A stretch of DNA of 64,000 nt, from the IMG/VR virus record IMGVR_UViG_3300031994_000101, positions 1 to 64,000 of that record. One strand, 5' to 3'. Positions 29,693-47,276 of this stretch are shown here, one piece after another. The notes under the pieces were generated by a model. That model did no database searches. It was not told the DNA's origin and worked only from the letters and a program-made list of their open reading frames with translations. This DNA comes from a virus. Each line of letters starts with the position of its first letter. The stretch's first letter is position 1. The translations under genes were made by a program, and so were the position numbers.

Positions 29693-29744
29693 GCAAATTC
29701 TCTTTCAACAAACGAATTTAACGAATTGACACTAATAAAGAAAT

Positions 29745-31029: not shown

Positions 31030-31407
31030 ATGTGGGTGTACGACAGATCTGCGAATCTCTGCTACGTCGAGATAGCGGAGGACGAGGACGTAAAGCACTA
31101 CCGCCTGCACAGCTACGGCATCGAGACTACGTGCCCTGCCGACACGGTGGTATATCCGCTGACGTTCACCACCCAGCGCATAGCCGAGACGGTGCGCAAC
31201 TACTACGACCACTACTTCTACGCCAACATCATGAATGCCGACTTCCGGCGCGAACTGGAAGATGACTTCCATGAACTCATGCACATCGACCTGGTCAGCG
31301 ACGACTACGAAGACCAGTACCACAAAATCATAGAGCGCATGGAAGACCATCTGCAGGAAATGCTCAGACACGCCGAAGCACTGCACATCAGACCAAGGCG
31401 GAAATAA
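31030..31407 (+). CDS. hypothetical protein (ATG 31030 in frame of track ORF 30913..31407)
   Basis: ORF. Confidence 0.4.
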   Translation: MWVYDRSANLCYVEIAEDEDVKHYRLHSYGIETTCPADTVVYPLTFTTQRIAETVRNYYDHYFYANIMNADFRRELEDDFHELMHIDLVSDDYEDQYHKIIERMEDHLQEMLRHAEALHIRPRRK

Positions 31408-31472
31408 TTTTTAACCCAAATTTTTAAATAATTTCCCCGACCGCAAGGGAGGGCTGAAAGACATCAACGACA

Positions 31473-32198
31473 ATGAAGAAAAGAAACTACAAGCGCATCT
31501 TCCGCCCAGGCACGCTGTTCCGCGTGGCGGGCAGCAACGCCGTGTTCATGTCGCTCGGACTGAACCCGAAGGACAACCGGCAAATATTCTCATTCAACGG
31601 TATGGACATCGTGCGCCGCTGTGCCGTGAAGCGTGCCGACGGTCGCGCCGTGCCCGCCACCATGCGCGAGCAGCAGACCTACTGGGCCGTGATGCGCGAG
31701 GTGATAGCACGGCGCGAGGAAGTACCGAAATTCTCGCCGGGCCAATGGATTACTGAAATCAGCACCGGGCGCTACGACCTGGTTGAGAACTACAGCAACG
31801 GCTACTACACCTGCGAGAATAGCGGATTCCCGAAGATCTACGAAGTGTGCTACCGCCGCTGGAACATCAACGACGCACGCCCCGGCGACATCCTCTTCTA
31901 TTACCCCACGCAGATGGCCTTCATCTTTAAGGGTATCGAGGGCGACGACCGCAAGCTGAAGCTCTTCTGCAGCTGCGACACCGAGGAACCCGAACAGCCA
32001 GGAGCCTTCCAGCTCTACGACGAAGACGAGTATTTTGGACGAGTCGACGACCTCGGCATCACCCCCGCCGACAACAAGCAGCGCCGAACGATGCTTGCCA
32101 AGATGTCCAGAGAAGGCTACGACTTAGGCTCTGGCAAGGACGGGCGGCTGGTACTGGTGAAAATACGGAATAACGACAAGGAGGACCCGCAGCCATGA
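31473..32198 (+). CDS. hypothetical protein (241 aa)
   Basis: ORF downstream of A/T-box+hairpin element. Confidence 0.5.
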   Translation: MKKRNYKRIFRPGTLFRVAGSNAVFMSLGLNPKDNRQIFSFNGMDIVRRCAVKRADGRAVPATMREQQTYWAVMREVIARREEVPKFSPGQWITEISTGRYDLVENYSNGYYTCENSGFPKIYEVCYRRWNINDARPGDILFYYPTQMAFIFKGIEGDDRKLKLFCSCDTEEPEQPGAFQLYDEDEYFGRVDDLGITPADNKQRRTMLAKMSREGYDLGSGKDGRLVLVKIRNNDKEDPQP

Positions 32199-32368
32199 CC
32201 CGACAGGAATTTGAGCAGCGTCTCGACGACCTCATTGACGAGTATATCTGCGAAAACGACGACTACGAAGACGTCTGCATCTGCCACACCACATCGTGGC
32301 GGCAACTGCCCGACGAGTGGATGATTGACGTGGCAATCGAGAAACAGAAGAAGCGAAAAATTTTTTAA
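32195..32368 (+). CDS. small acidic hypothetical protein (57 aa)
   Basis: ATGA overlap with upstream stop; manually traced to TAA 32366-68. Confidence 0.3.
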   Translation: MTRQEFEQRLDDLIDEYICENDDYEDVCICHTTSWRQLPDEWMIDVAIEKQKKRKIF

Positions 32369-32423
32369 CCCCAATTTTTTAACCAATTTCCCTGCGCAAG
32401 CAGGCTATAAAACAAACAAGATT

Positions 32424-32906
32424 ATGGAACAGCAGAATCATGACCAGATGGCCGAGCAGTACATCTCGGCAGTAGAGAAACAGAAACAGGAGGAGGGCTA
32501 CACTCCCGACCAGTCATTCACACGCGGCGACATGGAGACGTGCTTCGTCAGCGGCGCACAGTCGATGGAGCGGCTGCAGGTGGGTTGCCAGGGCACGTTC
32601 GGGCAGGCCATCGGCTCGCTCAGGGGCGGTTTCCTCGTGCGCCGCGAGGGATGGAACGGCAAGGGGATGTTCCTCTTTATGCGACCGTTCGACACGCTGC
32701 CCGACAAGATGATCACCGAGCAGGTGAAGTCGCTGCCCTGGAACTTCAAGGAGTGGGTACGCAACCACCCCAACGAGACTCGTCAGCGCTTTTTCGGGTC
32801 GTACATCTGCCTGAAGGCCGCCGACGGCACGATAGCCAACGGATGGCAGCCCTCGCAGACCGACATGCTCACCGACGACTGGGAACTGGTGAGCCCGGAG
32901 GAGTAG
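32424..32906 (+). CDS. DUF2829-like protein (Tad2-like, candidate anti-Thoeris sponge)
   Basis: ..LVRREGWNGKGMFLF.. and C-terminal ..ANGWQPSQTDMLTDDWELV resemble DUF2829 pattern as I recall it. Confidence 0.45.
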   Translation: MEQQNHDQMAEQYISAVEKQKQEEGYTPDQSFTRGDMETCFVSGAQSMERLQVGCQGTFGQAIGSLRGGFLVRREGWNGKGMFLFMRPFDTLPDKMITEQVKSLPWNFKEWVRNHPNETRQRFFGSYICLKAADGTIANGWQPSQTDMLTDDWELVSPEE

Positions 32907-33157
32907 TCCCGCAGCCCTTGACCTGCGCCCGCCTCCGGACGTATCATAGAGACAGCCGCCGGAAAGCCTACTGCGCAGTAGACTTCCGGCGACACCGACG
33001 GCGGTGGCTCGACGAACCCCAACGAGTAATCTCACGCGAAAGGCGGGCGGTGTGGGCAAGCGTGAGGCCCACGGTCCTTTTCATACCGTGCCAGCACCGC
33101 CCGCCAACTTTTAAAAAACGACCACGAATTGAACGAATTTTACGAATTAAGAGCGAT
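32907..33157 (+). other. GC-rich non-coding region dense in inverted repeats (candidate structured RNA / cis site)
   Basis: CTACTGCGCAGTAG perfect palindrome flanked by CCGGAA/TTCCGG; CGCCCGCC / GGCGGGCG / CGCCCGCC alternative pairings. Confidence 0.35.
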
Positions 33158-33409
33158 ATGACAAGACAAGACATTGAGAAGAAAGTCACCGACATACTGG
33201 TGGACAAGCTGGGCGTAGAGCCCGAAGAAGTGAAGAGCGACGCGAACTTTGAGGACGACCTCGGAGGCGACTCCCTCGACTGCGTGGATGTGCTGATGTG
33301 GATAGATCACGAGTTTAATATCCACGTCAGCGATGCCGATGCCTATCAGGCGAAGACCGTCGGCGACATCTGCGACATGGTGGAGCGATACGTAGGAAGT
33401 GAAAAGTGA
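33158..33409 (+). CDS. acpP: acyl carrier protein
   Basis: 84 aa, ..DDLGGDSLDCVDVLMWIDHEFNI.. phosphopantetheine-attachment DSL motif. Confidence 0.8.
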   Translation: MTRQDIEKKVTDILVDKLGVEPEEVKSDANFEDDLGGDSLDCVDVLMWIDHEFNIHVSDADAYQAKTVGDICDMVERYVGSEK

Positions 33410-33437
33410 AACGAAAAACGAAACGATTAAGAGCGAT

Positions 33438-33845
33438 ATGAAAGCATTTGAAATCAAAACCACGAATAGCGACTACCCCTTTCTGGTGTTAGCCGAGGGA
33501 TTCATGGAGGCCGTCGGAATACTGCAGCGCCAGAAGAACGTATGGGACGGCGACATCATAAACGTGCGATTGCTGGATACCTACAATAGCAATCAGATAT
33601 TGGTGAAGGACTTGATTGTTGCCAAAGAATCACTGGAAGAGAAAGTGCGTCACGAACTTCAGAAGAAGATGCCAAAATGGAAGCCCGGACCTAACGGGAT
33701 TTCTGGCAGCGCTCACGGCAACGATCTCTATCTGATACGCTCAGCGCGTGGCTACTACTTCACAGCCAAATGCGTCGGCGGCGCCAACTATTATCTGGAA
33801 CTCGAATCACTGGAACAGTTGGCAGGCCTGCCAAAAAATCAGTAA
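33438..33845 (+). CDS. hypothetical protein, paralogue of 30258..30659 product
   Basis: ATG in AAGAGCGATATG context; similarity along whole length. Confidence 0.55.
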   Translation: MKAFEIKTTNSDYPFLVLAEGFMEAVGILQRQKNVWDGDIINVRLLDTYNSNQILVKDLIVAKESLEEKVRHELQKKMPKWKPGPNGISGSAHGNDLYLIRSARGYYFTAKCVGGANYYLELESLEQLAGLPKNQ

Positions 33846-33860
33846 AATACTAAGAGCGAT

Positions 33861-34643
33861 ATGAAAGCAAAGTGTATCAGGGAGCTGACGATTGACGGCT
33901 ACAGGTTTGAGCCGGGCAAGGAGTACGATATCGAGTGGCGGGCGTTCACCCGCAATGCCGATGAGTGCGACCCCGTGCTGGCTCGCGGCTGCAAGGTGAG
34001 GCATATACGGTATGCCGTGAAGTACGACATGCTCGTGCCACTCCCATTCAGGCAGGGGCTGGAGAAAACGCCCGCCACGCTCTTCCTCTACGACCGCCAG
34101 TACTGCAAGCATGAGCGTTACACCGCCCCGGCCATCGAACCGTTTGGCTGGACTGCGGGCGGCCCGCTGCTCTGCTTCGACGAATTCTTCGAGGAGGTGA
34201 GCGAAGGCATGGACAACAAACCTCTCTTTACCCCCGACATCCTCGGCATGGCGACACACCAACCCGACTGGCCTCGCGGCACCGAGGTCGTGGTGTACGC
34301 CCGCAAGGAGGACCGTGAGAAGGTTCTGATGGTGACATCGAAGAAGGGCTATGTCGTCACTAAGTTCGTAGAGGTCAGCGGGCTGCAGGCCGAACTCATG
34401 GGCGAGGGTCGCTTCATCGCCGCCATGGCCGACTTCTTGCGCCCGAAGCCCGTGCGGTGGGAGCCCTCTCCCTACCCAGTCGTAAAGGCATGGCAAGACC
34501 GTATGCAGAACAACGTCATCTACCCGTCAAGCGAACTCCTCGACCAAATGAAAGCCTTCTTTCCTATGTGGCGCCACCGGATGCTCGGCGGCACACGCCC
34601 GTCGGACGGGCCAAGCCTGAGCAAGGAGCAAGAGACTGAATAA
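33861..34643 (+). CDS. hypothetical protein (260 aa)
   Basis: ORF; AAGAGCGATATG. Confidence 0.5.
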   Translation: MKAKCIRELTIDGYRFEPGKEYDIEWRAFTRNADECDPVLARGCKVRHIRYAVKYDMLVPLPFRQGLEKTPATLFLYDRQYCKHERYTAPAIEPFGWTAGGPLLCFDEFFEEVSEGMDNKPLFTPDILGMATHQPDWPRGTEVVVYARKEDREKVLMVTSKKGYVVTKFVEVSGLQAELMGEGRFIAAMADFLRPKPVRWEPSPYPVVKAWQDRMQNNVIYPSSELLDQMKAFFPMWRHRMLGGTRPSDGPSLSKEQETE

Positions 34644-34705
34644 TTTTTAATCTAATTTTTAATCAATTTCTCGCCGACAGGCGATGATAAAAAACAAAGA
34701 GCGAT

Positions 34706-34867
34706 ATGAAAATAGTAAGATTTGACAGCAAAGGAAACTGCCAGTTCGTTTATTTCAACTGGCGCAAGTTTAAGTTCATGACATCCTGCTGGGCCAACAG
34801 CCTTCAGGGACTGCTCGGCAAGACGAGTGAGAAGAAACATCTGGTAATCGGCTTGTGGAATCATTAA
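34706..34867 (+). CDS. small hypothetical protein (53 aa)
   Basis: AAAAAACAAAGAGCGATATG start context. Confidence 0.35.
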   Translation: MKIVRFDSKGNCQFVYFNWRKFKFMTSCWANSLQGLLGKTSEKKHLVIGLWNH

Positions 34868-34881
34868 AGGAGGACTGAGCC

Positions 34882-35022
34882 ATGGGAGAAATGAAATGGA
34901 AATTTAACCTGTTCGGCATCCGTATCGGGTGGCACAAATACTTTTCAGCCGTTTGTTACGACCGCAGGAACCGTCTCCTGCAAATCGGCAAACTGGAACT
35001 CTGGTTTTATGGATTGAATTAA
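34882..35022 (+). CDS. small hypothetical protein (46 aa)
   Basis: preceded by AAGGAGGACTGAGCC-ATG. Confidence 0.3.
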   Translation: MGEMKWKFNLFGIRIGWHKYFSAVCYDRRNRLLQIGKLELWFYGLN

Positions 35023-35058
35023 ACGGCAGAAGATAACAACAAAAAACAAAAGAGCGAT

Positions 35059-35535
35059 ATGAGAACAATCAAATTCAGAGGGCAAAGGATTAATAACGGG
35101 GAATGGGAATATGGCGACCTTGTTCATGATGACATTGGCGGATGCTACGTATTCCCGACTGAATGCAAAGGTTTATATCGAAACAACAAGGTTGTCTCGC
35201 AGTCTGTTGGCCAGTTCACTGGCTTGAAGGACAAGAACGGAAACGACATCTACGAGGGCGACATACTGCGCTCCGACGACTACCCGTTCTGCGACGACGG
35301 CAACGACAACTACATGGGCGTCGTGTTCTGCGACACAGACGATGCCGTCGGCATGTTTCAAGTCATGCTGTTCGTACTCAAATCATCGGAGAAAAGGGGC
35401 ATCAGCAACTTCATCAACAAGTGCTTCTACGACCTTGACCTGACCAAGGTGGAAGTAATCGGCAACATCTTCGACAATAAAGGACTCTTCCGCGACAGCG
35501 ACGAGGAAATCCTGAAATGGTATCTGGATGACTAA
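35059..35535 (+). CDS. YopX-family phage protein
   Basis: MRTIKFRGQ.., ..VGQFTGLKDKNGNDIYEGDIL.., ..EVIGNIFDNKGLF resemble YopX conserved blocks. Confidence 0.6.
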   Translation: MRTIKFRGQRINNGEWEYGDLVHDDIGGCYVFPTECKGLYRNNKVVSQSVGQFTGLKDKNGNDIYEGDILRSDDYPFCDDGNDNYMGVVFCDTDDAVGMFQVMLFVLKSSEKRGISNFINKCFYDLDLTKVEVIGNIFDNKGLFRDSDEEILKWYLDD

Positions 35536-35551
35536 CTCTCAACTCTGAACT

Positions 35552-36634
35552 ATGAACTATGAACTGAAGTCCATTCCCCAAACCTGGAGCGAGCTCTCGT
35601 GGCAGCAGCTCACGGACTGCTGGCAGGCCAAGATGCGTTACGGCGGCAATGCCGACGTGGCACGCGCCGCCGCCCTGCTGGCCGTCTGCGGACTGACCGT
35701 GGAAGGCCGCGAGCCCGCCGACACCCGGACGGGCGAGACCGTCTACCGCCTGAAGGACCAGAACGGGCAGACGTGGATGACGACGGCCCGCGAACTCGCA
35801 CACCTCGCACGGCAGACAATGCCGTGGTTCGACTGGCCCTACGGCGACCATGGCGACAAGGAAGAGCGCGACGAGCAGGGCGAGGTGATCCGTGAGCGCC
35901 GCGAGGGACATCCGGGCTACGTCAACCAGAACCAGCAGGACTGGCGGGACGCCATGGTGCTGACGGAAGAGACGGTCGAGGTGGCGGGCGTCACCTTTGC
36001 CCTGCCCCAGGGCGCGTGCTCCAACATCACATGGCACCAGTACCGCAGTCTGCAGGCCATCGCGCCGCAGCTGTGGCAGGACGGCCTCACGGACGACGAG
36101 GCACGCTCGCTTCACGCGCAGTTCCTGGCATACATCCTCGTGCCCGCCCCTGCGACGGCAGACACCGGCGACCGCTTCCACACCAAGCCCTCGTTCCGCT
36201 ACGATGCCGAGCGGGCCGAAGCCAGCGTGGCGTTCTGGGAAAACCAGTTATCCATTGAACATGGAACATGGAACATTGAACATTCCCATGCGGCGGGCAG
36301 TGCGCCAGCCAATAATGTTCAATCCTCCATGTTCAATGTTCAATCACCCCTCGTCCTCTTCCACATCTGCTTCCAGGTATGGCAGACTGCGGTGGCCAAC
36401 TTCTACCCCTCCGTGTTCCCCCTCCTCTTCGGCGGCGGCAAGTCCGACCCGCTGCACACCGCCCTCACCGGAGAGACCGACACCATCAATGCCGTAATGA
36501 AGTACCAGGGCTACAGCTCGCCAGAGCAGGTGTATAACACCGAACTGCCCATCATCCTCGGCACGCTCAACACCATGAGCAAAGAGGCCAAGGAGATTGA
36601 GAAGATGAATGCGAAGATAAAGCGCAAGGGCTAA
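35552..36634 (+). CDS. hypothetical protein (360 aa) with internal iteron-like repeat block (candidate replication initiator)
   Basis: ORF; GAACATG/GAACATT x4 and inverted AATGTTC x3 at 36252..36348. Confidence 0.45.
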   Translation: MNYELKSIPQTWSELSWQQLTDCWQAKMRYGGNADVARAAALLAVCGLTVEGREPADTRTGETVYRLKDQNGQTWMTTARELAHLARQTMPWFDWPYGDHGDKEERDEQGEVIRERREGHPGYVNQNQQDWRDAMVLTEETVEVAGVTFALPQGACSNITWHQYRSLQAIAPQLWQDGLTDDEARSLHAQFLAYILVPAPATADTGDRFHTKPSFRYDAERAEASVAFWENQLSIEHGTWNIEHSHAAGSAPANNVQSSMFNVQSPLVLFHICFQVWQTAVANFYPSVFPLLFGGGKSDPLHTALTGETDTINAVMKYQGYSSPEQVYNTELPIILGTLNTMSKEAKEIEKMNAKIKRKG

Positions 36635-36677
36635 GGAAAGAAATTATCAGAAATTACCATTTAATATTTAAGGAGAT

Positions 36678-37223
36678 ATGAAACAAGAGACATTGAAAAA
36701 AGCGAAAGACCTTGAAAATAAAATCAGTGAATACGGAGATTTGCTGCTGAGCAGAGGTGCCAATTATCACACGATGCTCATCAGCATCTCCTGTGCCTAT
36801 TCCAACGACCGGGATATATACCACGGGAGGGTAAGCAAGGAGGTATGGAACAAGATGCTCGACGTGGTGGCAGAGGATGGACTGAAGACTAAGCAGGAGT
36901 TGGAAGCCCTCACCGACGACACGACAGACGCAGACCCGGAGATAATAACCGACGTGCCAGAGGCCGACATGACAGGCGGCAAGTCCAAGCCTGCTGACAA
37001 GCCGCAGAAGGACTCGTGTACGGACAAGTTCATTAGGTCGATGGAACGGCTGGCGAGTTGGATGCTATACTCTATGATCTTCTGCTTCCTGCTCGGAGTG
37101 GCAGGGCTGGAGCTTTCAATACGCGAAGCCGTAGCCTACTCGCTGATGCTCGGCCTGATTACAGGCTCCATCAACAATCTGGAACGGGTAATAAGGGAAC
37201 TTTTCGGAAAGAAGGAGGGCTGA
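36678..37223 (+). CDS. hypothetical protein (181 aa) with C-terminal TM segment
   Basis: ORF, AAGGAGATATG start. Confidence 0.5.
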   Translation: MKQETLKKAKDLENKISEYGDLLLSRGANYHTMLISISCAYSNDRDIYHGRVSKEVWNKMLDVVAEDGLKTKQELEALTDDTTDADPEIITDVPEADMTGGKSKPADKPQKDSCTDKFIRSMERLASWMLYSMIFCFLLGVAGLELSIREAVAYSLMLGLITGSINNLERVIRELFGKKEG

Positions 37224-37226
37224 GAC

Positions 37227-37571
37227 ATGACGAAAATCAGCGAACTACGCAAGCGACTTGGCATGGATAGCCGCGTTGGGCAAGTGAAATGTCACAAGTG
37301 CGGCAAGACACTTGACATACCCAACATGTATTCAGAGAAAGAGCGAAACGCCGTGCTGAAACCCTACTGCTGCGCCACGACTGTGCTCATCGTACAGTGG
37401 CTCATCCATCACGGGTGGCACGTCACGACGCACGATGCCAACCCCGCCGGGGCGTACTTCTGCCCCGACTGCTTCCCCAAGGGGCAACCAGAGTACAGCC
37501 GCAGTGCAGCAGGCAAGGAGTGGTGCAAGCAGGCTGAGCAATGGATGAAAGAGAATAATGGTAAACGATAA
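37227..37571 (+). CDS. zinc-finger hypothetical protein (114 aa)
   Basis: CHKCGK..CPDCF. Confidence 0.5.
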   Translation: MTKISELRKRLGMDSRVGQVKCHKCGKTLDIPNMYSEKERNAVLKPYCCATTVLIVQWLIHHGWHVTTHDANPAGAYFCPDCFPKGQPEYSRSAAGKEWCKQAEQWMKENNGKR

Positions 37572-37604
37572 AAAACGACCACATGACTAAATCAAAAGAG
37601 CGAT

Positions 37605-38423
37605 ATGAAAGAAGAACTAATGTATTGGATCCGTAAATGGGAACTGGACGAAAATCTCATTTACAAGAAAGCCGGAGAGAAGCAAGCCGCTTTTGTCCGC
37701 AGTCAGATTTGCGGCAACCTGCTGCACACCCACGGCTTCGTGGTGAGCACACACTATTCCAAGTCGTGCGAGCTGCCAGTGTATTTCCTGAAGCTGCGCA
37801 ACGGCATCAAGCTGATTATGCGCTGCAACTTCTACGACTGGAAGGTGAGCGTAGAGATACCCGACGACTACGAGCCGCTACCCAAGGACTACCTGCCCAC
37901 CGACTGCCTCAGTCACAGCATGGTGGAGAACAAGGGCGAGAGGATAGCGCCCTGCTACATGGAGGGATTCCGCAAGGAGTGGTGCTACGATGCTTACATC
38001 CCCGAGCAGCCCGGCAAGAAATTCTCCATCGAGATACCCGACGACTGCCGCCTCTATGTCATCATCCACCGACTGAAGCACGCCTATCCCGACGTGGCAT
38101 TCGACCCATCGACCGACCATCGGACGGTGGAACAGATAAAAGAGTCTATCGACAAGATACTGGCCGACAACGGATTCCTCGACATGCGCGATGACGAGAG
38201 CTGGGGCAAACCCGTGAAGCAGAGCGTGATGAGCGCTTGGGAAATCATCTGGCAGACCTACCAGAAGATGGACGATTTGTATTACGCCGGAAAGATGACC
38301 GGCAAGGAGATGCCGACGGTTTCAGAGGATTCGCAGGAGTACGCCAAGGTCATCATGCGCTTCCCAGAAGTACACGAGGAGTTCCTGCGTGAGGAATGTA
38401 TGTATAACGATAAGATAGACTGA
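37605..38423 (+). CDS. hypothetical protein (272 aa)
   Basis: ORF; AAAAGAGCGATATG. Confidence 0.5.
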   Translation: MKEELMYWIRKWELDENLIYKKAGEKQAAFVRSQICGNLLHTHGFVVSTHYSKSCELPVYFLKLRNGIKLIMRCNFYDWKVSVEIPDDYEPLPKDYLPTDCLSHSMVENKGERIAPCYMEGFRKEWCYDAYIPEQPGKKFSIEIPDDCRLYVIIHRLKHAYPDVAFDPSTDHRTVEQIKESIDKILADNGFLDMRDDESWGKPVKQSVMSAWEIIWQTYQKMDDLYYAGKMTGKEMPTVSEDSQEYAKVIMRFPEVHEEFLREECMYNDKID

Positions 38424-38429
38424 CACCGT

Positions 38430-39053: not shown

Positions 39054-39079
39054 AACATTTAATTATTTATAAGAACGAT

Positions 39080-39571: not shown

Positions 39572-39655
39572 AGCGACCCCCGCCGACTGGACTACGAGAA
39601 AATCATTCACATCTGCGAGGAGCGCATCCGGCAGATAGAGAAGGAGGACTGACCG

Positions 39656-40009
39656 ATGAAAGCAAAGAAGCCTAACGAAATACGCGAAGAGGTGCGAAAG
39701 CAGGTGGCCGCGAAATATAAAGAAGAAATCGAGCGGCTGAAGAAACTCGCCAAAGACCGCTGGGACAACTACATCGACGCGACCAAACGACTGTCGGATC
39801 TCTATGACGAGAATGCCCTGCTGAAAGAAAAGGTTGCCGCTCAGCAGGAATGGATAGAGCGACTGATGGAGTTTATCAACATGCCCGACGAGAAACGCGG
39901 CGCGGCTGTCAAGGAGTACGTAGAGAACCGCAAGATATCCGAACAGTTCCGCGAACTGTTCAGCCCCTACTTCGATGCGCTCAACCGCCTCAATATTCTT
40001 AGTCTGTAA
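39656..40009 (+). CDS. coiled-coil hypothetical protein (117 aa)
   Basis: ORF preceded by GGAGGACTGACCG-ATG. Confidence 0.5.
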   Translation: MKAKKPNEIREEVRKQVAAKYKEEIERLKKLAKDRWDNYIDATKRLSDLYDENALLKEKVAAQQEWIERLMEFINMPDEKRGAAVKEYVENRKISEQFRELFSPYFDALNRLNILSL

Positions 40010-40029
40010 TCACACATTTAATTATTTCT

Positions 40030-40875
40030 ATGAGCAATTTGTTAAAGATGAACTATGATTTTCCAGAGGCCGAGGGGCTGGTGGTGTGCGGCGACATTCA
40101 CGGCAAGTTTGACGAGCTGGTGTATCGCATGACGGTGCTGTGCCAGATGGAGCACACGGTGGTCATCGTGGCTGGCGACTGCGGTTTCGGGTTCCACCGG
40201 CGCAGGTACTACGACGAAGTGTATAGGCGCGTGCTGCCGAAGCTGGAGCGTGCCGACTGCCATGTGGTCTTTGTGCGCGGCAACCATGACAATCCAGCCT
40301 ACTTCGACGGTGAGGAAATCAGCATGAAGCGCTGGGTGGCCGTCAGCGACTATTCGACCGTCACCGTCGCAGGCCACCGCGTGCTGTGTGTCGGCGGGGC
40401 GACGAGTGTTGACAGGAAGAACCGGGATAGTTTTATTCCTCTTGAAAGAAGAGTTCAGCGGCTTTATGAGACTGCCGAGATGCGGCGCTCAAACGAACAC
40501 ATGGAATATATATGCCGCTTTGAACCTGCAGACTACTGGACGAAGGAACAACCCTATATCGACGATTCAGCACTGGCACGGCTGCACCGTGAGGGCAAGA
40601 CGGTGGACTCGGTAGTGACCCACGTCGCCCCCTCGATGTGTGAGGACGTGGTGCCGCCTTCATGGCTGGAGTACCTGATAGAGAACGACCCGACCCTGCC
40701 CGACGACATGCGTCACGACCGGGAAGTGATGGACGCCATTTTGGAGCGGCTGCGCAAGCACTGCCACCCCGTGCGTCACTGGCTTTACGGTCACTATCAC
40801 CACTCCTGGCAAGCCGAAATCGACGGCATCCGCTACACGATGCTGAAGGAAATGGAAATGAAGGAACTGAGGTAA
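40030..40875 (+). CDS. metallophosphoesterase (calcineurin-like Ser/Thr phosphatase family)
   Basis: VVCGDIHG, VAGDCGFG, VRGNHDNP motifs. Confidence 0.7.
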   Translation: MSNLLKMNYDFPEAEGLVVCGDIHGKFDELVYRMTVLCQMEHTVVIVAGDCGFGFHRRRYYDEVYRRVLPKLERADCHVVFVRGNHDNPAYFDGEEISMKRWVAVSDYSTVTVAGHRVLCVGGATSVDRKNRDSFIPLERRVQRLYETAEMRRSNEHMEYICRFEPADYWTKEQPYIDDSALARLHREGKTVDSVVTHVAPSMCEDVVPPSWLEYLIENDPTLPDDMRHDREVMDAILERLRKHCHPVRHWLYGHYHHSWQAEIDGIRYTMLKEMEMKELR

Positions 40876-40920
40876 TCAGCGAAAATAGTACTAACATTTT
40901 AAGCAACATTAGAAAGAAAT

Positions 40921-41220
40921 ATGGCAAGAACAATTATTTCAAGAAAACAGGCAATCTCTGACCTCAGAGAAATGTTTGAGTTACCCGCCGAAGGTAAGCG
41001 ACAGGACGATGACGGGTGTTCTTTCTGTAGCGAGAAAGAGAACGATACGGCGGCTTTCTGCATCGACAAAAAACATTTTGAACGCTATGAAGTGTTACAG
41101 AAACTAAGCGAGTATTTTGACGACAAAGTGATAGACGGCGGATGGTGCAGGGTTGATAACATTACATTCGTATGGACTCAGTTTTGGATTGAGCTGGTCA
41201 AGAAGGAGGGTGCAGAATGA
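40921..41220 (+). CDS. hypothetical protein (99 aa)
   Basis: ORF. Confidence 0.45.
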   Translation: MARTIISRKQAISDLREMFELPAEGKRQDDDGCSFCSEKENDTAAFCIDKKHFERYEVLQKLSEYFDDKVIDGGWCRVDNITFVWTQFWIELVKKEGAE

Positions 41221-41846
41221 CTAAGGAAGAAATTAAGGAACTGAAAGTCGGCACAAGCGTTATGCACAAACGTTACGGAGAGTGTGTCGTAAAGGACATA
41301 CTTAATGTCGGAGTAGTGCTGATACCAAAGACTGCAAGAGGAAGAACCATGATCCTTATCGACTACGGAAAGGAAGCTCCCGTACTGGAAGATAATATCG
41401 GTAATATAAAACACCTGCAAGAACGTATGACCAATGAAAGACCAATGACCGCTGCCGAGCACAATGCGCAGGTGGAAGCTGAACGCAGGGCCTATCACGA
41501 GCGGCGGTGCCGCGAGAGCGAGGGCTACAAGCGGGTGTACGAGTATATCACCGGAGCATTCCAGAGGGTGCGCGAGCAAGTGAGCCAGGGACTTACGATG
41601 ACGCAGCAGACCATGCAGCAATGCAATGCGGACGCGACGGGCGCAACGATACCCTGCGAAGGCACCGCCCCGAAGGTGGACTCCCTCTCCAGTCTCTTTG
41701 CCGTCGGCATCCTCGGCTGGATGCTTGGCATCCCCATCGGCGACCCTGACTTCCAGCTCGACTTGGAGGCCGACAAGGAATACATCGAAGAATATGTCAA
41801 GGCCGAGACCGAGTTCATCCACCGTCTCGTGCCGGAGGTAAGGTAA
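41217..41846 (+). CDS. hypothetical protein (209 aa)
   Basis: ORF. Confidence 0.5.
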   Translation: MTKEEIKELKVGTSVMHKRYGECVVKDILNVGVVLIPKTARGRTMILIDYGKEAPVLEDNIGNIKHLQERMTNERPMTAAEHNAQVEAERRAYHERRCRESEGYKRVYEYITGAFQRVREQVSQGLTMTQQTMQQCNADATGATIPCEGTAPKVDSLSSLFAVGILGWMLGIPIGDPDFQLDLEADKEYIEEYVKAETEFIHRLVPEVR

Positions 41847-41867
41847 CAAACAAAAGACATTACAACA

Positions 41868-42830
41868 ATGATTGATCCCGACAATATCTACAACATGGAC
41901 TGCCTCGAAGGACTGCGGCAGATGGAGGACGCGACGGTGGACTGCTGCGTCACGTCGCCGCCCTACTTCGCCCTGCGCGACTACGGCTGCGAGGGACAGA
42001 TAGGACTGGAGCAGTCGCCGGAGGAGTACATCGCCCGGCTCTGCGACGTGTTCCGCGAGGTGCTGCGCGTGATGAAGCCCGAGGCGACGTGCTGGGTGGT
42101 AATCGGCGACACCTACGCCGGCAGCAACAAGGGTGCGGCCTGCTACCCCGACAACGCCAAACTCTATCTGCAGGGCACCAACGCGGGGACGCTCGACCGC
42201 GCCACCTCCTACCGCTTCGACACCGTGGCTAAGGATCGCGACCTGATAGGCATACCCTGGATGCTGGCCTTTGCCCTGCGCGACATGGGCTTCTATTTGC
42301 GGCAGGATATCATCTGGCAGAAGCCTAACCCGATGCCGGAGAGCGTGAAGAACCGCTGCACCAAGTCACACGAGCACATCTTCCTGCTTACCAAGCAGCC
42401 ACGCTACTACTTCAGCGTCGATGCGCTGCGCGAGCCTGCCAACACCGGCATCCGTGCCCATGAGTATAACCACCGCAAGGTGAAATTTACCGTCCAAGGG
42501 CACCGGAATGTGCAGTTTCGTGGCGGCAACCAGAGCGACAGTTTCCGCAATAAGCGCGACGTGTGGCCGATACTGGTCAAGCCCGGCTACGAGGGCCACC
42601 ACGCCACCTTCCCCGTGGAGCTGCCTCTGCAGTGCATTGCCCTCGGCTGCCCAGTGGGGGGGGTAGTTCTCGATCCTTTTATGGGCACGGCCACCACTGC
42701 CGTCGCCGCATACCGCATCAGACGCCACTATGTGGGTTTCGAGCTGTCGCCCGACTATCACGCTATCTGTCTGGAGCGCCTGCGCCAGGAGCGACAGCAG
42801 CAGCGGTTGGAGTTTGAGGAGGAAGAATGA
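41868..42830 (+). CDS. DNA methyltransferase, beta-class (N6-adenine or N4-cytosine; SPPY)
   Basis: N-terminal CVTSPPY (motif IV) and C-terminal VLDPFMGTATTAVAA (motif I). Confidence 0.8.
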   Translation: MIDPDNIYNMDCLEGLRQMEDATVDCCVTSPPYFALRDYGCEGQIGLEQSPEEYIARLCDVFREVLRVMKPEATCWVVIGDTYAGSNKGAACYPDNAKLYLQGTNAGTLDRATSYRFDTVAKDRDLIGIPWMLAFALRDMGFYLRQDIIWQKPNPMPESVKNRCTKSHEHIFLLTKQPRYYFSVDALREPANTGIRAHEYNHRKVKFTVQGHRNVQFRGGNQSDSFRNKRDVWPILVKPGYEGHHATFPVELPLQCIALGCPVGGVVLDPFMGTATTAVAAYRIRRHYVGFELSPDYHAICLERLRQERQQQRLEFEEEE

Positions 42831-42883
42831 CAGACAATTTATAACAAGAGATTACAACCCTTTAATATTAAACTAACAAAATT

Positions 42884-43324
42884 ATGGAAAATTGGATTTT
42901 AGTTAAAAACCTGGATGGCGAAGATATAAAAGTTCGCCAGAACCGTGCTTACGGTGACATCTTTGTTGACGAGCAAGGTAGGGAATACGTGGCGAGTGTT
43001 CTTGACTTTACCGGCGCACGTCTTGAGATACCCGACTTCAACGAGCAGAACAAAGAGGACCTGAATACGCTGAAGGATATGATGAAGTCGATGGACGCCA
43101 AGGCCATTGCCGACCATAAGGCCGTGATTGACGAGTTTGAGTATTGGAGAAAGTTGCGTGGTGAAATTTTCATGGAAATGTATCGCGACCACTTGGTCAA
43201 GAACGACGGCAGAAAGTCTGAGGACGATCTGCTGAACAAGACAAAGTACCTTGTCAATCAGCTGTGGCAACAAGACCAGGATTTCACATCTGACAAAAAG
43301 GTGTTTCATATTCCTGTCAAATGA
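42884..43324 (+). CDS. hypothetical protein (146 aa)
   Basis: ORF. Confidence 0.5.
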   Translation: MENWILVKNLDGEDIKVRQNRAYGDIFVDEQGREYVASVLDFTGARLEIPDFNEQNKEDLNTLKDMMKSMDAKAIADHKAVIDEFEYWRKLRGEIFMEMYRDHLVKNDGRKSEDDLLNKTKYLVNQLWQQDQDFTSDKKVFHIPVK

Positions 43325-44946
43325 ATAAAACATTAACGCGCATGAAACAAATAACAGCATTATACATCGACCTGTTCTGCGGGGCAGGCGGCACGTCGAG
43401 CGGCGTGGAGTATGCGCGACTGGACGGGAGGAAGTGTGCCGAGGTGGTGGCGTGCGTCAACCATGACGCGAATGCCATCAGGTCGCACAAGGCAAACCAC
43501 CCGCACACGCTCCACTTCACCGAGGACATCCGCACGCTGGAGCTGTCGCCGATGGTGAAGCATCTGGAGAAGAAGCGGCGTCAGTACCCCAAGGCAAAGG
43601 TGGTGCTGTGGGCGAGCCTTGAATGTACGAACTTCTCGAAGGCGAAGGGCGGACAGCCGCGCGATGCCGACAGCCGGACGCTGGCCGACCACCTGTTCCG
43701 CTACATCGAGGCGCTGCAGCCCGACTATATCCAGATTGAGAACGTGGAGGAGTTTATGTGCTGGGGTGCGCTCGACGAGAACGGCAAGCCCGTGAGCCGT
43801 GACCAGGGCAGCGACTACCTGCGGTGGGTGAGACAGGTACAGGCCTACGGCTACGACTTCGACTGGCACGTGCTGAACGCTGCCGACTTCGGGGCCTACA
43901 CCTCACGCAAGCGCTTCTTCGGGCTGTTCGCCCGCAAGGGACTGCCGATAGCGTTCCCCGAACAGACCTTCGCCAAGAACGGCGACGAGGGCGGCATGTT
44001 CCATCAGTACCGGCGGTGGCGGGCCGTGCGCGACGTGCTTGACCTCGACGACGACGGCGAGAGCATCTTTGTGCGCCGCAAGCCGCTATGCGAGAAGACA
44101 CTGGAGCGCATCTATGCCGGACTGGTGAAGTTCGTGGCGGGAGGCAAGAAGCGGCACGAGGCGTGGATATTGAAGTACAACTCGATGAACCGGCAGAACC
44201 ATCACAATGCACCGTCCATCGACGAGCCGTGCCCCACGGTGGCCTGCCAGAACAGGCTCGGACTGGTGAAGTGCCAGTTCCTCTCGAAGCAGTTCAGCGG
44301 CGACCCCGACAGCAAGAACATAGACATCGAGCAGCCCGCCGGCACCGTGACAACCATCGACCACCATGCCTTCGTGACGGCATACTACGGCAACGGATTC
44401 AATTCGTCGATTGACAGTCCGGCGCCCACCGTCACCACCAAGGACAGAATTTCGCTGGTGACGACAAAGTTCATGGATAACCAGTACGGCAAGAGCAAGC
44501 CGTCATCTATCGACGGGCCAGCGCCGACGCTTGTCAACAATCCCAAGCAGAAGATTGTGTCGGCGCAATACCTGATGAACCCTCAGTATCAGAGCGACGG
44601 CGGCAGCATCGACAACCCTTGCTTCACGCTGATAGCCCGGATGGATAAGATGCCGCCATACCTGATTACCACTAAGGAGGGCATGGTGGGTATCGCCATC
44701 TATGAGAGCGACAGCCCCTGGACGCGCAAGGTGAAGGAGTTCATGGCCGCATACGGCATTGTTGACATTTGCATGCGCATGCTTAACATCGGTGAGCTGA
44801 AGCGCATCATGGGCTTCCCCACCGACTACGTGCTTATCGGCACGCAGGCCGAACAGAAGAAATACATCGGCAATGCGGTCGAGGTGAACATGAGCCGCGT
44901 GCTCTGCGAAGCCCTGTGCAGGAAGATTAAGAGTATGAATCAATAA
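43321..44946 (+). CDS. DNA (cytosine-5)-methyltransferase (541 aa)
   Basis: LFCGAGG (I), IENVEEF (VI), ..RIMGFPTDY..GNAVEV (IX/X). Confidence 0.75.
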   Translation: MNKTLTRMKQITALYIDLFCGAGGTSSGVEYARLDGRKCAEVVACVNHDANAIRSHKANHPHTLHFTEDIRTLELSPMVKHLEKKRRQYPKAKVVLWASLECTNFSKAKGGQPRDADSRTLADHLFRYIEALQPDYIQIENVEEFMCWGALDENGKPVSRDQGSDYLRWVRQVQAYGYDFDWHVLNAADFGAYTSRKRFFGLFARKGLPIAFPEQTFAKNGDEGGMFHQYRRWRAVRDVLDLDDDGESIFVRRKPLCEKTLERIYAGLVKFVAGGKKRHEAWILKYNSMNRQNHHNAPSIDEPCPTVACQNRLGLVKCQFLSKQFSGDPDSKNIDIEQPAGTVTTIDHHAFVTAYYGNGFNSSIDSPAPTVTTKDRISLVTTKFMDNQYGKSKPSSIDGPAPTLVNNPKQKIVSAQYLMNPQYQSDGGSIDNPCFTLIARMDKMPPYLITTKEGMVGIAIYESDSPWTRKVKEFMAAYGIVDICMRMLNIGELKRIMGFPTDYVLIGTQAEQKKYIGNAVEVNMSRVLCEALCRKIKSMNQ

Positions 44947-44962
44947 AAAACAAAAGAGCGAT

Positions 44963-45910
44963 ATGAAAATCTTATCAAGACCTAAGAAGAATGCCGAGGA
45001 ATATGGCAAGTGGGCGGTGAACCCGTATGTCGGATGCAGCAACCAGTGTGAGTACTGCTATCTGCGGAAAGGTCCGTCGGGCAAATACCTCGGGCAAGAC
45101 CAACCCGTGCTGAAGAAAGGTGTGGTGAATGAGGAACATGCCTATCACCTGGCGATGGCCGAAATCATCGAACACAAGGACGAAATCATCCGCGACGGCG
45201 GACTGTTCTTCACCTTCACCAGTGACCCGTGCCTGCCGACAACGTGTGGCCTAACATTCCCAATAGCGGCTGATGCCATGAACTACGGAATACCCGTGAC
45301 GCTGTTGACAAAAAACGCTGACTTTTGCGGAATGGAAAATCCGTCAGTGCAGCTATTCACAGTGGCCTATCAGGTCAATTCATGGCTGACGCACATCGTC
45401 ATATTCAAAAACACCTACCAAGAACGTCTCGCCATCGGTTTTACGCTAACGGGACGCGACGATTTGGAACCATTGGCATCGTCAAACCAAAAACGTATTA
45501 ACGCTTTGGAATACCTGAACGGCGAAGGATGGCTCACCTGGGCCAGCATCGAGCCGGTCATTGACTTCGACTCCAGCCTGCGCATGATACAGCAGGCGCT
45601 CGACGCGGGCTGTCAGCACTTCAAGATTGGGCTGATGACTGAGCACACGAAGGTATGCCGACGGGGCTTCACGCTGGGCGGCAAGACATTCGAGCCCTAC
45701 GACCCCGCCCGTTGCCTGGCCTTCGTGCAGGACGTGATGCAGCAGACGCGAGACCGCGCCACGGTGTACTGGAAGCAATCTTTCCGCGACTTCATTGGCG
45801 GCACCGGCAAGCACCGTCTCTTTACCGACGACGAGCTGCACAAGATCTTCGACGACTATTCCAATGCCGTCGGCAAGGACTGGAGTATGTTCAACCCTCA
45901 AAACAGATAG
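44963..45910 (+). CDS. radical SAM protein, SplB/DNA-photolyase-like family
   Basis: VNPYVGCSNQCEYCY signature (NPYxGCxxxCxYCY). Confidence 0.65.
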   Translation: MKILSRPKKNAEEYGKWAVNPYVGCSNQCEYCYLRKGPSGKYLGQDQPVLKKGVVNEEHAYHLAMAEIIEHKDEIIRDGGLFFTFTSDPCLPTTCGLTFPIAADAMNYGIPVTLLTKNADFCGMENPSVQLFTVAYQVNSWLTHIVIFKNTYQERLAIGFTLTGRDDLEPLASSNQKRINALEYLNGEGWLTWASIEPVIDFDSSLRMIQQALDAGCQHFKIGLMTEHTKVCRRGFTLGGKTFEPYDPARCLAFVQDVMQQTRDRATVYWKQSFRDFIGGTGKHRLFTDDELHKIFDDYSNAVGKDWSMFNPQNR

Positions 45911-45914
45911 CACT

Positions 45915-46100
45915 ATGGTACATTTTGGTAAAACGCAGGACGACGAACTGCAGATTATCGTCACCGGCGAGGACATCGAGTCGCTGCGCTGCATGATTGT
46001 CTCGTCATCGCTCATGGAGCGCCGCACGTTCTATGGGCTGAAAGAGTATATCGAGACAGAGTATAAGAACATTATCACCGGCAAGGTGAAGAATAAATAA
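45915..46100 (+). CDS. small hypothetical protein (61 aa)
   Basis: ATG 45915 in frame. Confidence 0.35.
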   Translation: MVHFGKTQDDELQIIVTGEDIESLRCMIVSSSLMERRTFYGLKEYIETEYKNIITGKVKNK

Positions 46101-46153
46101 TTTTTAATAACAATTTCCCCGACCGGAAGGGAGGGCTTAAAAAATTTAAAACA

Positions 46154-46618
46154 ATGAGATCAAAAACAGCAACATGGTTTGAGTGCAAGATTCGTTACGA
46201 GAAGACAATGGAAGACGGCTTGCAGAAGAAAGTGACAGAACAGTATGTCGTGGATGCCCTCAGTTTCAGCGAGGCCGAGCAGCGCATCATCGAGGAAATG
46301 TCCGCATACATCAGCGACGAGTATGAAATCACCGACGTGAAGAAGGCACCCTACAAGGAGGTGTTCTTCAGCGATGCAGACCTGGAGGACCGCTACTACA
46401 AGGCCAAGCTCCAGTTCATCACCATCGACGAGAAGACCAACAAGGAGAAGCGCAGCAACGTCACCTACCTGGTGCAGGCCGCCACGCTCGACGGCGCAGT
46501 CAAGAACATCAACGAAGTGATGGACGGCACGATGATAGACTACGAGAAGTCGAACATCGCCGAGACGAAGGTGATGGATGTTTTCGAGTACAAGAAGGAG
46601 GAGGACAGCGAAGAATAA
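46154..46618 (+). CDS. hypothetical protein (154 aa)
   Basis: ORF after A/T-box+GGAA hairpin element; followed by GC hairpin. Confidence 0.5.
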   Translation: MRSKTATWFECKIRYEKTMEDGLQKKVTEQYVVDALSFSEAEQRIIEEMSAYISDEYEITDVKKAPYKEVFFSDADLEDRYYKAKLQFITIDEKTNKEKRSNVTYLVQAATLDGAVKNINEVMDGTMIDYEKSNIAETKVMDVFEYKKEEDSEE

Positions 46619-46625
46619 AGAATGA

Positions 46626-46674
46626 GACCCCACCCTTGCCCCTCCCCCTGTATGGGAGGAGCAGGGGTGGGGTC
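46626..46674 (+). terminator. GC-rich hairpin (GACCCCACCC...GGGTGGGGTC) after stop of 46154..46618
   Basis: 10-bp outer stem plus inner CCCCTCCCCC/GGGAGG pairing; no clear U-tract. Confidence 0.4.
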
Positions 46675-46699
46675 AGTAACTTGTAAAAATGAAAGCGTT

Positions 46700-47029
46700 A
46701 TGAACGAACAAGTAGACATTCTGAACCTGCTGAAGGACAAGTCGGAACTGCTGAAGTACATCCTCGACATGATAGCATCGAGCGACAAGTTCGCCCGCAA
46801 TCTGCCCGAACTGCGCCAGCGCGGCTGGTCGGAACAGGGAATGCTCGACAAGGTGCTGGAAATCTCAGCCATCCAGTCGCAGCAGATCAAACACCTCGCA
46901 CTGATAGCCCTGCTGCTGGTGCAGTCGGACGACTTCAACACGATGGTGGTAAAGATGATGGTCAATATGGGGCGCGGCGACGAAGCCCTCAGCGCCATGT
47001 TCGATGCAAAACTAAAAGGAAAGGACTGA
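46700..47029 (+). CDS. hypothetical protein (109 aa)
   Basis: ATG 46700 after hairpin; track ORF starts inside hairpin. Confidence 0.45.
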   Translation: MNEQVDILNLLKDKSELLKYILDMIASSDKFARNLPELRQRGWSEQGMLDKVLEISAIQSQQIKHLALIALLLVQSDDFNTMVVKMMVNMGRGDEALSAMFDAKLKGKD

Positions 47030-47033
47030 GCGT

Positions 47034-47219
47034 ATGGCAACAATCAAGGATATGGCTTTCGACTATTCTTTGCAGCGAGGCCACGGCAAGAAATCGTATG
47101 AGCACTACATGGCTGGTGCCCGTGCCGTCATCCGCAAGATACAGGAAGCCTACAACATCAGGGGCATCGACACGATGGTTGACCAGATTAACAGCCTCAT
47201 TGAAGAGTTGAAAGAATAA
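47034..47219 (+). CDS. hypothetical protein (61 aa)
   Basis: ORF preceded by AAGGACTGAGCGT-ATG. Confidence 0.4.
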   Translation: MATIKDMAFDYSLQRGHGKKSYEHYMAGARAVIRKIQEAYNIRGIDTMVDQINSLIEELKE

Positions 47220-47276
47220 TTTTAATCTAATTTTAACTAATTTCTCGGCGACAGCCGATAATAAAACAAAACGACA

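Follow-up and report, generated by a model that had tools for sequence, protein, structure and literature searches.

A conserved stop-to-start intergenic cassette with a covarying hairpin in large rumen Prevotella phages: a possible portable expression unit

The promoter-early stem-loops (PeSLs) of T4-type phages combine an AT-rich region, a promoter and a stem-loop lying between or over the promoter boxes, and fill the interval between a stop codon and the following ATG (Arbiol et al. 2010, PMC2839356; Comeau et al. 2014, PMC4122927). They are enriched among ORFans, have been found experimentally to act as both promoter and terminator, and mediate modular shuffling (PMC2839356, PMC4122927); PeSL mini-circles have been studied by inverse PCR. 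Among chromosomal repeats, the repetitive extragenic palindromes (REPs) fall into the GTAG and CGTC super-families, in which head-to-head dimers predominate and tandem dimers are rare (PMC3733652). A third point of reference is provided by the promoters of phage N4, whose non-contacted stem bases vary if paired, whose loop holds a sheared G:A pair, and where initiation takes place at a fixed distance (PMC4496689). In the large phages of Bacteroidota, and especially in rumen Prevotella phages, gene control is almost unknown. Here, an intergenic element is described from 64,000 nucleotides of viral DNA (positions 1–64,000 of IMG/VR record IMGVR_UViG_3300031994_000101, hereafter the window), in which five copies of AT-rich boxes, an AATTTC tag and a hairpin lie between genes. 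It represents a genuine and conserved family of intergenic cassettes, not described before, from a clade of uncultured 120–145 kb rumen Prevotella phages.

The five copies are all on the + strand, where the original prediction had placed them, and exact coordinates could be read for each (Table 1; all coordinates are window positions). Every copy occupies the gap between the upstream stop codon and the next ATG (5/5), the first box overlapping the upstream gene's TAA, which bears out the predicted position directly after a stop. Within a cassette of ~55–70 nt the order is one or two boxes of the form (T)AATTTTTAA, with a T-run of 4–6; 2–4 nt; AATTTC; a hairpin that follows directly; and a leader of 18–21 nt, A-rich and lacking a Shine-Dalgarno sequence, in agreement with the A-rich tract and the ATG expected some 15–25 nt on. 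Copies 1, 2, 3 and 5 have two boxes and copy 4 a single one; box-to-box phasing is 12–13 nt, and AATTT(T/C) recurs as three direct repeats phased by about one helical turn. The proposed architecture of boxes, AATTTC and short hairpin stands. Copies 2, 3 and 5 have a 5-bp stem and a 4-nt loop. Copies 1 and 4 carry a longer hairpin, CCC-GA-CC-G(C/G)AA-GG-GA-GGG, with tandem G.A mismatches; this form is one lineage, whose relatives differ in the loop only (GGAA, GCAA or GAAA). Invariant throughout is the loop frame, a C-G closing pair around G-N-N-A (c-GNNA-g), and the conserved 5' edge, TGAATAATTTTTAAT, carries stop codons for all three frames.

A chance origin of the five copies is excluded. 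The string TTTTAA-N2-4-AATTTC has five matches, on the + strand only, against 0.00 expected (100 shuffles), and AATTTTTAA with ≤1 mismatch is present 24 times where 6.3 would be expected. An nhmmer profile of the five copies recovers those five alone, with E-values of 1e-10 to 1e-17 and a next match at E 2.2, and a degenerate-unit sweep of the window gave no further copies. Rfam and tRNA scans of the window returned nothing.

Comparison with related viral, metagenome and bacterial DNA, the loci of which are given L-numbers, reveals both the reach and the modularity of the element. With the protein encoded after copy 4 as query, 50 viral loci were retrieved, many on 120–145 kb contigs; the nearest contig (IMGVR_UViG_3300011989_000005) is ~97% identical to the window, while deposited phages gave no near match, the primases of Polaribacter and Bacteroides phages being the only, distant, matches. 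In L122 the orthologous position retains box and AATTTC with another hairpin (CCTGC-GACA-GCAGG), and in L124–127 it reads AATTTC-aa-GGGC-GAAA-GCCC with no box. The modules are therefore separable, and box number across the family ranges from 0 to 3. Conservation in related phages, on which the original prediction had staked the element, is present in the close clade, and the element is absent at the orthologous position where the adjacent protein is ≤74% identical to that of the window.

Scans of viral, metagenome and genome collections, using a pattern of box, AATTTC and the fixed C-GNNA-G frame, yielded 235 distinct sites. Their four free stem positions are distributed bimodally: a background with 0–2 Watson-Crick pairs, from loci of 39% median G+C, is separated from a second group of 102 distinct sites with all four positions paired, where ~0.5 would be expected from the background. 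The loci of this second group have a median G+C of 55%, and that of the window is ~55%. In an alignment of 24 distinct copies chosen for hairpins, all cells are paired and four of the five pairs change on both sides (38 cells), a covariation signal that is abolished by sliding the pairing register. Selection on box and AATTTC alone gave perfect stems in 25 of 31 cases, and with no motif forced, (A/C)ATTTC stands before 13 of the 28 c-GNNA-g hairpins in 623 kb; CATTTC and TATTTC are rare variants of the tag. Of the 115 pooled sites with three or more Watson-Crick stem pairs, 96 carry one of six stem alleles (CCTGC, TCGCC, TCGGC, CCGTC, CAGCC and TGGCC), and independent compensatory events are therefore modest in number. 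Orthologous downstream genes carry differing stem alleles.

The loops had been labelled GNRA tetraloops, a description that does not hold for the family. At the same 115 sites they are GACA (33), GAAA (32), GCAA (27), GTCA (9) and rarer types, and ~40% (46/115) are GACA, GTCA, GATA or GTTA, all outside GNRA; GACA is the loop of window copies 3 and 5. Although G1, A4 and the C-G closing pair were prescribed by the search pattern, the same c-GNNA-g frame is seen in the loci retrieved by protein, which were not selected by pattern. A hairpin is predicted in every copy, folded as RNA or as DNA, and whole-segment folding z-scores are unremarkable (+0.77 to -1.77).

Orientation and spacing are strongly constrained. 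At 86 of the 102 perfect-stem sites (84%) the element is co-oriented with its flanking genes and an ATG lies 14–23 nt past the hairpin, with a mode of 18 and 63 sites at 18–21 nt, and the proteins downstream of these sense copies belong to 47 unrelated families. Where copies are paired in phage DNA, 17 pairs are tandem, seven are back-to-back (tail-to-tail, from ~3 loci) and none is face-to-face. In L126 (11678–11995), a 320-nt non-coding region upstream of a large gene looks like a major divergent control region: about a common AT-rich centre, one copy faces left and three face right. The region is also seen in L078, L127 and L294; the window has a minus-strand gene (51715–52224) in its place. 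A signal tied to one fixed genome strand, for replication or packaging, was rejected, as contig 3300031994_000025 has co-oriented copies on both strands. AATTTC and the boxes stay on the same DNA strand whichever way the neighbouring genes run, so whatever reads the element must see either DNA or a transcript of the element itself, and not its neighbours' mRNA.

In the window the copies lie within a 48-kb train of + strand genes, from 9029 to about 57565, among accessory genes that encode two DNA methyltransferases, a YopX-like protein, a metallophosphoesterase, an acyl carrier protein (ACP)-like open reading frame (ORF) and many ORFans. Across the window, the leaders before start codons are A-rich and free of Shine-Dalgarno sequences. 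The minus-strand blocks contain ordinary hairpin-plus-T-run terminators and TAnnTTTG -7 boxes, and a scan of 29–49 kb found no excess of sigma-70-type promoters or terminators. The strict Bacteroidota -33/-7 pattern (TTTG-N17-23-TAnnTTTG) occurs nowhere along the whole + strand train and at none of the copies, the boxes reading TAATTTTT and AATTTC without the conserved G of that consensus; a host sigma-A promoter was rejected on this ground.

Homology between relatives is mosaic, and its breakpoints flank elements. In L123, L124 and L126 it is lost at ~46078 and returns at 46138–46168, either side of copy 4, in place of which these loci have inserts of 1–2 kb with elements of their own. Where both flanks are conserved, the alternative state consists of 1–2.6 kb of extra genes at element positions. 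No target-site duplication or inverted termini were found at the element junctions compared. With no terminal inverted repeats or target duplication, and with whole gene cassettes or plain spacer as the alternative states, insertion as a MITE (miniature inverted-repeat transposable element) or other transposon was rejected.

The clade can also be linked to a host. A chromosomal contig from a metagenome-assembled genome (MAG) of an uncultured Prevotella sp. (L417, CAMOGW010000017.1), with flanking flavodoxin, MFS transporter and S9 peptidase genes, holds at 51–2706 a CRISPR array of 41 repeats (GTTGTGGTTTGATGTAGAAAAGAGATATAAAGCAAT), three spacers of which match this phage group, identifying Prevotella as the host. 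The spacer at 153–181 (CTTAATTTTTAACTAATTTCTCGGCGACA) is the element itself, with 100% identity over 27–28 of its 29 nt to L290 and L121; the nearest window copy is copy 5, with four mismatches. The spacer at 1660–1688 matches window 4283–4311 (27/29 nt), that at 88–116 matches L248, and no shared protospacer-adjacent motif emerged among the matching spacers; the matches point to a host and carry no information on the strand transcribed. The CRISPR arrays of the two Prevotella MAGs are GTTGTGGTTTGATGTAG... arrays. Where other rumen MAG contigs carry true elements, those contigs are pieces of this phage group.

Taken together, these features may tentatively be read, with somewhat less than even confidence, as those of a portable intergenic expression unit, comprising a promoter off the host consensus, AT-rich boxes and a stable hairpin, which would also serve as a recombination joint by analogy with PeSLs. 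The boxes and AATTTC would form a promoter unmatched to the host sigma-A consensus, read by host RNA polymerase with a phage factor or by a phage enzyme, and firing in the direction of the hairpin. This would place the hairpin at or close to the transcript's 5' end, or else inside the initiation region; there it could make the message more stable and prevent the leader from folding. The hairpin may form in DNA as well, since c-GNNA-g and c-GNA-g are classic hyper-stable DNA loops, a loop chemistry that is a lead towards a DNA-level function, short of proof. As the cassette is conserved from stop to start, it would double as a homology patch, and gene cassettes would be gained, lost and swapped between phages at elements, as at T4-type PeSLs. 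A promoter cassette is favoured by the 84:16 orientation bias, the fixed distance to the ATG, the diversity of downstream genes, the consistent lack of convergent pairs, and the lack of host-type promoters in the 48-kb train.

Several observations weigh against such an expression unit. The first is the lack of any match to the Bacteroidota TTTG/TAnnTTTG consensus. Secondly, 16 of the 102 sites (16%) have no downstream ATG, and 14 of these are inverted inside co-linear arrays of accessory genes. Read in the gene direction, inverted copies run stop, 8–15 nt, hairpin, GAAATT, TTAAAAATT boxes, ATTC(A/G)AGA(C/T)T, ATG; they fit exactly from stop to start, are conserved across orthologous loci (L219, L268, L300 and L320, for instance, have one behind a J-domain protein gene), and as promoters would make antisense RNA. 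Their loops are GTCA, GACA, GATA or GTTA, never GAAA or GCAA, whereas sense copies have GAAA, GACA, GCAA and GTAA, a difference that a promoter model leaves unexplained. The element is also optional, as L122 has one where the window has a plain 20-nt spacer (CACCTAACGAAAGCACAATT, 49617–49636). Further, searches of the window and ~456 kb of related DNA by Pfam, PHROGs and motif found no sigma factor, RNA polymerase or regulator. The helix-turn-helix-like protein at 14705 (52 aa), originally put forward as the cognate factor, has a weak PHROG match only and close homologues on four viral contigs only, and nothing was found that links it to the element.

Bacterial modules of similar design add to these difficulties. 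Contigs L410 and L416, from uncultured Prevotella sp. Cattle_2_mag_37, have arrays of ~112-nt units in which element-like modules, TTAACTAATTTTTAAC-N3-AATTTTTAACTAATTTC-GA-(GCC|GGC)-loop-(GGC|GCC)-GA, alternate in orientation; that of L410 (900–2100) lies between a CRISPR array (386–748) and a sigma-70-family gene (2202–2831). A metagenome contig (L293, JAEEGK010016303.1) carries at 1932–1983 a face-to-face doublet, AAATTTC-TGGCC-GTGA-GGCCA, 14 nt, CCGCC-TAAC-GGCGG-GAAATT, in the gap between NtrC-like response-regulator and histidine-kinase genes. Face-to-face and alternating layouts are unlike those of productive promoters. In scope, the arrays come from the genome of one GTDB species and the doublet from one metagenome contig; the host units do not fold as terminators, an Rfam scan of the arrays gave no relevant match, and the host-type junction has chance matches only in IMG/VR phages. 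The arrays in L410 (900–2100) and L416 (1–700) are interspersed with a GAGTTCA 7-mer satellite and AAAGCTATGCTTTT palindromes, and none of these other array components was found in the related phage loci compared. It is because of the conserved inverted copies, the face-to-face and alternating bacterial copies, and the failure to find a factor that confidence in a promoter cassette is held below even. The original suggestion of a phage-specific promoter or 5'-untranslated module accordingly survives in part: orientation, spacing, the 47 downstream families and the lack of convergent pairs speak for it, and the inverted copies, the bacterial arrays and the missing -33/-7 match speak against it.

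The serious rival is a structural repeat without a promoter, similar to REPs and the bacterial interspersed mosaic elements (BIMEs): a tagged palindrome common to the phage clade and to Prevotella-type chromosomes. In polycistronic mRNA its hairpin would block exonucleases or mark a processing site in the adjacent AU-rich tract, sense copies guarding the 5' end of the downstream cistron and inverted copies the 3' end of the upstream one; it would also provide recombination homology, and would spread via gene conversion or an HUH/Y1 enzyme. This explanation is less probable than not by a good distance, yet quite possible. As in REPs (PMC3733652), a short stem-loop bears on one side a conserved tag that does not pair, sub-families are set apart by complementary changes in the stem, and the element is strictly extragenic, occurring as singletons, dimers and clusters. 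Its six stem alleles cover most sites, it is found facing either way between stop and start, a given junction may have or lack it, no target-site duplication accompanies it, the phage has a 3'-5' exoribonuclease-like protein, and the bacterial copies (L293, L410 and L416 only) are head-to-head or alternating. A neutral extragenic repeat would not, however, be expected to show an 84:16 bias or so tight a spacing of 18–21 nt to the ATG, and with AATTTC and the boxes fixed to one strand, a reader acting on RNA would meet two different sequences. The element is phage-borne and gene-co-oriented, has AT-rich boxes attached and a tag, AATTTC, that is neither GTAG nor CGTC, and its phage dimers are tandem or tail-to-tail, types that are rare in REPs, with none head-to-head. 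No RAYT/Y1 transposase is encoded in the window, which is part of a ~134-kb genome and has TnpB only, and the genomes scanned contain no dispersed high-copy chromosomal family. A further point against this rival is that G.T wobbles in the pooled stems are as rare as A.C mismatches (5 vs 3), although numbers this small give the strand-asymmetry comparison no power. Tag, dimer types and the lack of a RAYT transposase in the window argue against membership of the REP family, to which the architecture is analogous only.

An unlikely explanation is that the element is an array of binding sites in duplex DNA with no promoter of its own, for which a nucleoid-associated protein, gyrase, a repressor or a recombinase would be candidates. 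The three phased AATTT(T/C) repeats would form the site and the hairpin an accessory cruciform. The helical phasing of these direct repeats, the conservation of sequence in both orientations relative to genes and the recombination breakpoints at elements all speak for such an array, and a precedent is given by the BIME/RIP elements of E. coli, which bind IHF and gyrase. It fits poorly with the strong orientation bias and fixed ATG spacing and with boxes that are dispensable in L124–127 and elsewhere vary in number, and no candidate binding protein was found.

Slightly more doubtful is a structure-specific DNA-hairpin promoter as in phage N4, in which supercoiling and melting of the AT boxes would extrude a c-GNNA-g or c-GNA-g mini-hairpin, and a polymerase or factor would read this hairpin with AATTTC and start at a fixed distance. 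Triloop variants of the element contain GCGAAGC or GCGTAGC, which are classic hyper-stable DNA mini-hairpins. The motif d(cGNNAg) is listed among the four most stable DNA tetraloop motifs by Nakano et al. 2002, as cited in PMC10085684, and the many loops that are not of the RNA-type GNRA class point the same way. N4 stems, of 5–7 bp, likewise have non-contacted bases that vary but stay paired, and a very stable small loop, C-G closed and with a G...A pair, set at a constant distance from what comes next; the element resembles this in its covarying stems, its unvarying closing pair and loop ends, and its constant spacing between hairpin and ATG. The stable hairpin is, however, on the template strand in N4 and on the sense strand here (86/102), its loop has four nucleotides and that of N4 three, and dozens of copies across accessory regions contrast with three in N4, which are few and at one genome end. 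No virion RNA polymerase is known for this clade, and neither a giant enzyme of that kind nor a catalytic motif of a polymerase turned up among the large ORFs in the window and in ~456 kb of related loci, from genomes that are partly sampled. A 5-bp stem is, moreover, at the lower limit for extrusion.

The least credible alternative, and a very improbable one, is a terminator or attenuator that is factor-dependent or read hairpin-first (hairpin, GAAAUU, A/U-rich tract), for although inverted copies put the hairpin 8–15 nt past a stop codon, a left-facing copy in L126 is followed by GAAATTTTTC in the gene direction, and PeSL stem-loops terminate transcription (PMC2839356), 84% of copies face so as to halt nothing but antisense transcription, neither direction has a U-tract immediately after the stem, the stems are no longer than 5 bp, the terminator scan shows no excess, and canonical terminators occur elsewhere in the genome. 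An intrinsic (Rho-independent) terminator had already been doubted in the original prediction, and rightly, as the sense strand is T-rich upstream of the hairpin and has an A-tract after it, with GAAATT following on the other strand. 'Anti-late' antisense promoters in structural genes were also rejected, as inverted copies lie among accessory, not structural, genes. Their arrays (gene-strand view, L219 564–1958 and 3836–8992; L348 3683–4990) encode a J-domain protein, a 1718-aa protein and a protein with a MutS-like N-terminus.

Other sequences at gene starts deserve mention beside the cassette. The 10-mer GAGCGATATG forms the 3' end of many cassettes, including in relatives, and occurs at nine sites on the + strand of the window and none on the - strand, with ~0.06 expected by chance; the ATGs are at 19103, 33158, 33438, 33861, 34706, 35059, 37605, 44963 and 48427, eight of the nine being mapped gene starts and 19103 having no called start. 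This 10-mer may represent a second portable junction, or a context preferred for initiation. In copy 3 the last leader bases before the ATG at 34706 are GAGCGAT. Tandem ACGAATT repeats (two or three, ~9–10 nt apart) at 29712–29727 and 33124–33148, with ATGs just downstream at 29745 and 33158, are similar to ACGAATTTTTAA, a first-box variant in relatives, and may be box-only, hairpin-less versions of the cassette. Among distant relatives that lack the element (L130–L165), the orthologue of the gene at 46154 often has TTATTCAC upstream, ~20–25 nt before its ATG; this sequence is also found at 16991 and 2068 of the window and may be a different leader or promoter motif. The GAATAA edge of the element reads TTATTC as its reverse complement.

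Several neighbouring genes were noted in passing (Table 1). For a phage whose genes have no Shine-Dalgarno leaders, a homologue of translation initiation factor IF-1 is an unusual gene to carry; next to it, and to the small helix-turn-helix-like ORF, is the gene of the exoribonuclease-like protein. A paralogous pair (30258–30659, MQAFEIKTNKSDYPFL…; 33438–33845, MKAFEIKTTNSDYPFL…), 3 kb apart, flanks copies 1 and 2. A radical-SAM protein and three DNA methyltransferases, one of them a C5-cytosine methylase (21394–22251, 9522–10454, 41868–42830 and 43321–44946), suggest heavy DNA modification or anti-restriction cargo.

Table 1. Cassette copies and selected genes in the window
Feature	Position	Strand	Details
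Copy 1, cassette	31406..31472	+	profile E 1.1e-15; upstream TAA 31405-31407
Copy 1, parts	boxes 31406-31414, 31419-31428; AATTTC 31430-31435; leader 31454-31472; ATG 31473	+	boxes AATTTTTAA, AATTTTTAAA; leader 19 nt
Copy 1, hairpin (long form)	31436..31453	+	CCC-GA-CC-GCAA-GG-GA-GGG
Copy 2, cassette	32359..32423	+	profile E 6.1e-14; TAA of 57-aa ORF, 32366-32368, inside first box
Copy 2, parts	boxes 32359-32368, 32373-32382; AATTTC 32385-32390; leader 32405-32423; ATG 32424	+	both boxes AATTTTTTAA; leader 19 nt
Copy 2, hairpin	32391..32404	+	CCTGC-GCAA-GCAGG
Copy 3, cassette	34642..34705	+	profile E 9.3e-17; stop TAA 34641-34643
Copy 3, parts	boxes 34642-34650, 34654-34662; AATTTC 34665-34670; leader 34685-34705; ATG 34706	+	both boxes AATTTTTAA; leader 21 nt
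Copy 3, hairpin	34671..34684	+	TCGCC-GACA-GGCGA
Copy 4, cassette	46099..46153	+	profile E 2.8e-10; stop TAA 46098-46100
Copy 4, parts	box 46099-46107; AATTTC 46112-46117; leader 46136-46153; ATG 46154	+	single box AATTTTTAA; leader 18 nt
Copy 4, hairpin (long form)	46118..46135	+	CCC-GA-CC-GGAA-GG-GA-GGG
Copy 5, cassette	47218..47276	+	profile E 1.2e-13; stop TAA 47217-47219
Copy 5, parts	boxes 47218-47225, 47229-47236; AATTTC 47239-47244; leader 47259-47276; ATG 47277	+	both boxes AATTTTAA; leader 18 nt
Copy 5, hairpin	47245..47258	+	TCGGC-GACA-GCCGA
IF-1 homologue	14450-14671	+	Pfam eIF-1a, E 6.4e-24, 83.8 bits vs cut-off 30.2
Rv2179c 3'-5' exoribonuclease-like protein	14868-15590	+	PF16473, E 1.2e-16
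ACP-like ORF	33158-33409	+	…DDLGGDSLDCVDVLM…; accessory region; by eye only
TnpB / IS605 OrfB-family gene	60679-61824	+	OrfB_IS605 3e-21; Cas12f1-like TNB domain 2.3e-19; no TnpA nearby

A ~60-nt motif backed by covariation at more than 100 gene starts provides a handle for mapping transcription units in these phages, and a source of expression parts for Prevotella and Bacteroides. If the cassette is both regulatory unit and recombination joint, modular gene shuffling of the PeSL type reaches beyond T4-type phages. The DNA-type loops, conserved inverted copies and bacterial modules suggest structure-specific recognition or an exchange of repeats between phage and host, and a hairpin read in DNA would make this a second independent example of such a promoter after coliphage N4, in a Bacteroidota phage, portable and seeding repeats in host chromosomes. 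The spacer directed at the repeat itself indicates that a host can target a conserved, multi-copy signal.

Two further comparisons place the element among described systems. By inspection, the nut sites of lambdoid phages are similar in that a short linear motif (boxA) is followed directly by a 5-bp hairpin (boxB) with a GNRA-like G...A loop, that of P22 being GACAA. The element differs in having far too many copies, one per small gene, loops of four bases where those of boxB have five, no boxA consensus, both orientations, and no N-like protein that could be found. With PeSLs it shares the span from stop codon to ATG, AT-rich sequence upstream, a core resembling a promoter with a stem-loop beside it, numerous copies that cluster among small accessory and ORFan genes, and cassette insertions, deletions and replacements between close relatives that map to elements. 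PeSLs, in contrast, match sigma-70 exactly, whereas the element has none of the TTTG/TAnnTTTG motifs of Bacteroidota; its stem is short and c-GNNA-g closed where that of PeSLs is polyG/polyC; its leader has no Shine-Dalgarno sequence; 16% of its copies are inverted; and it belongs to another phage lineage and host phylum. As the defining host-consensus promoter is absent, it is not a member of the PeSL family, but PeSLs are its closest known analogue.

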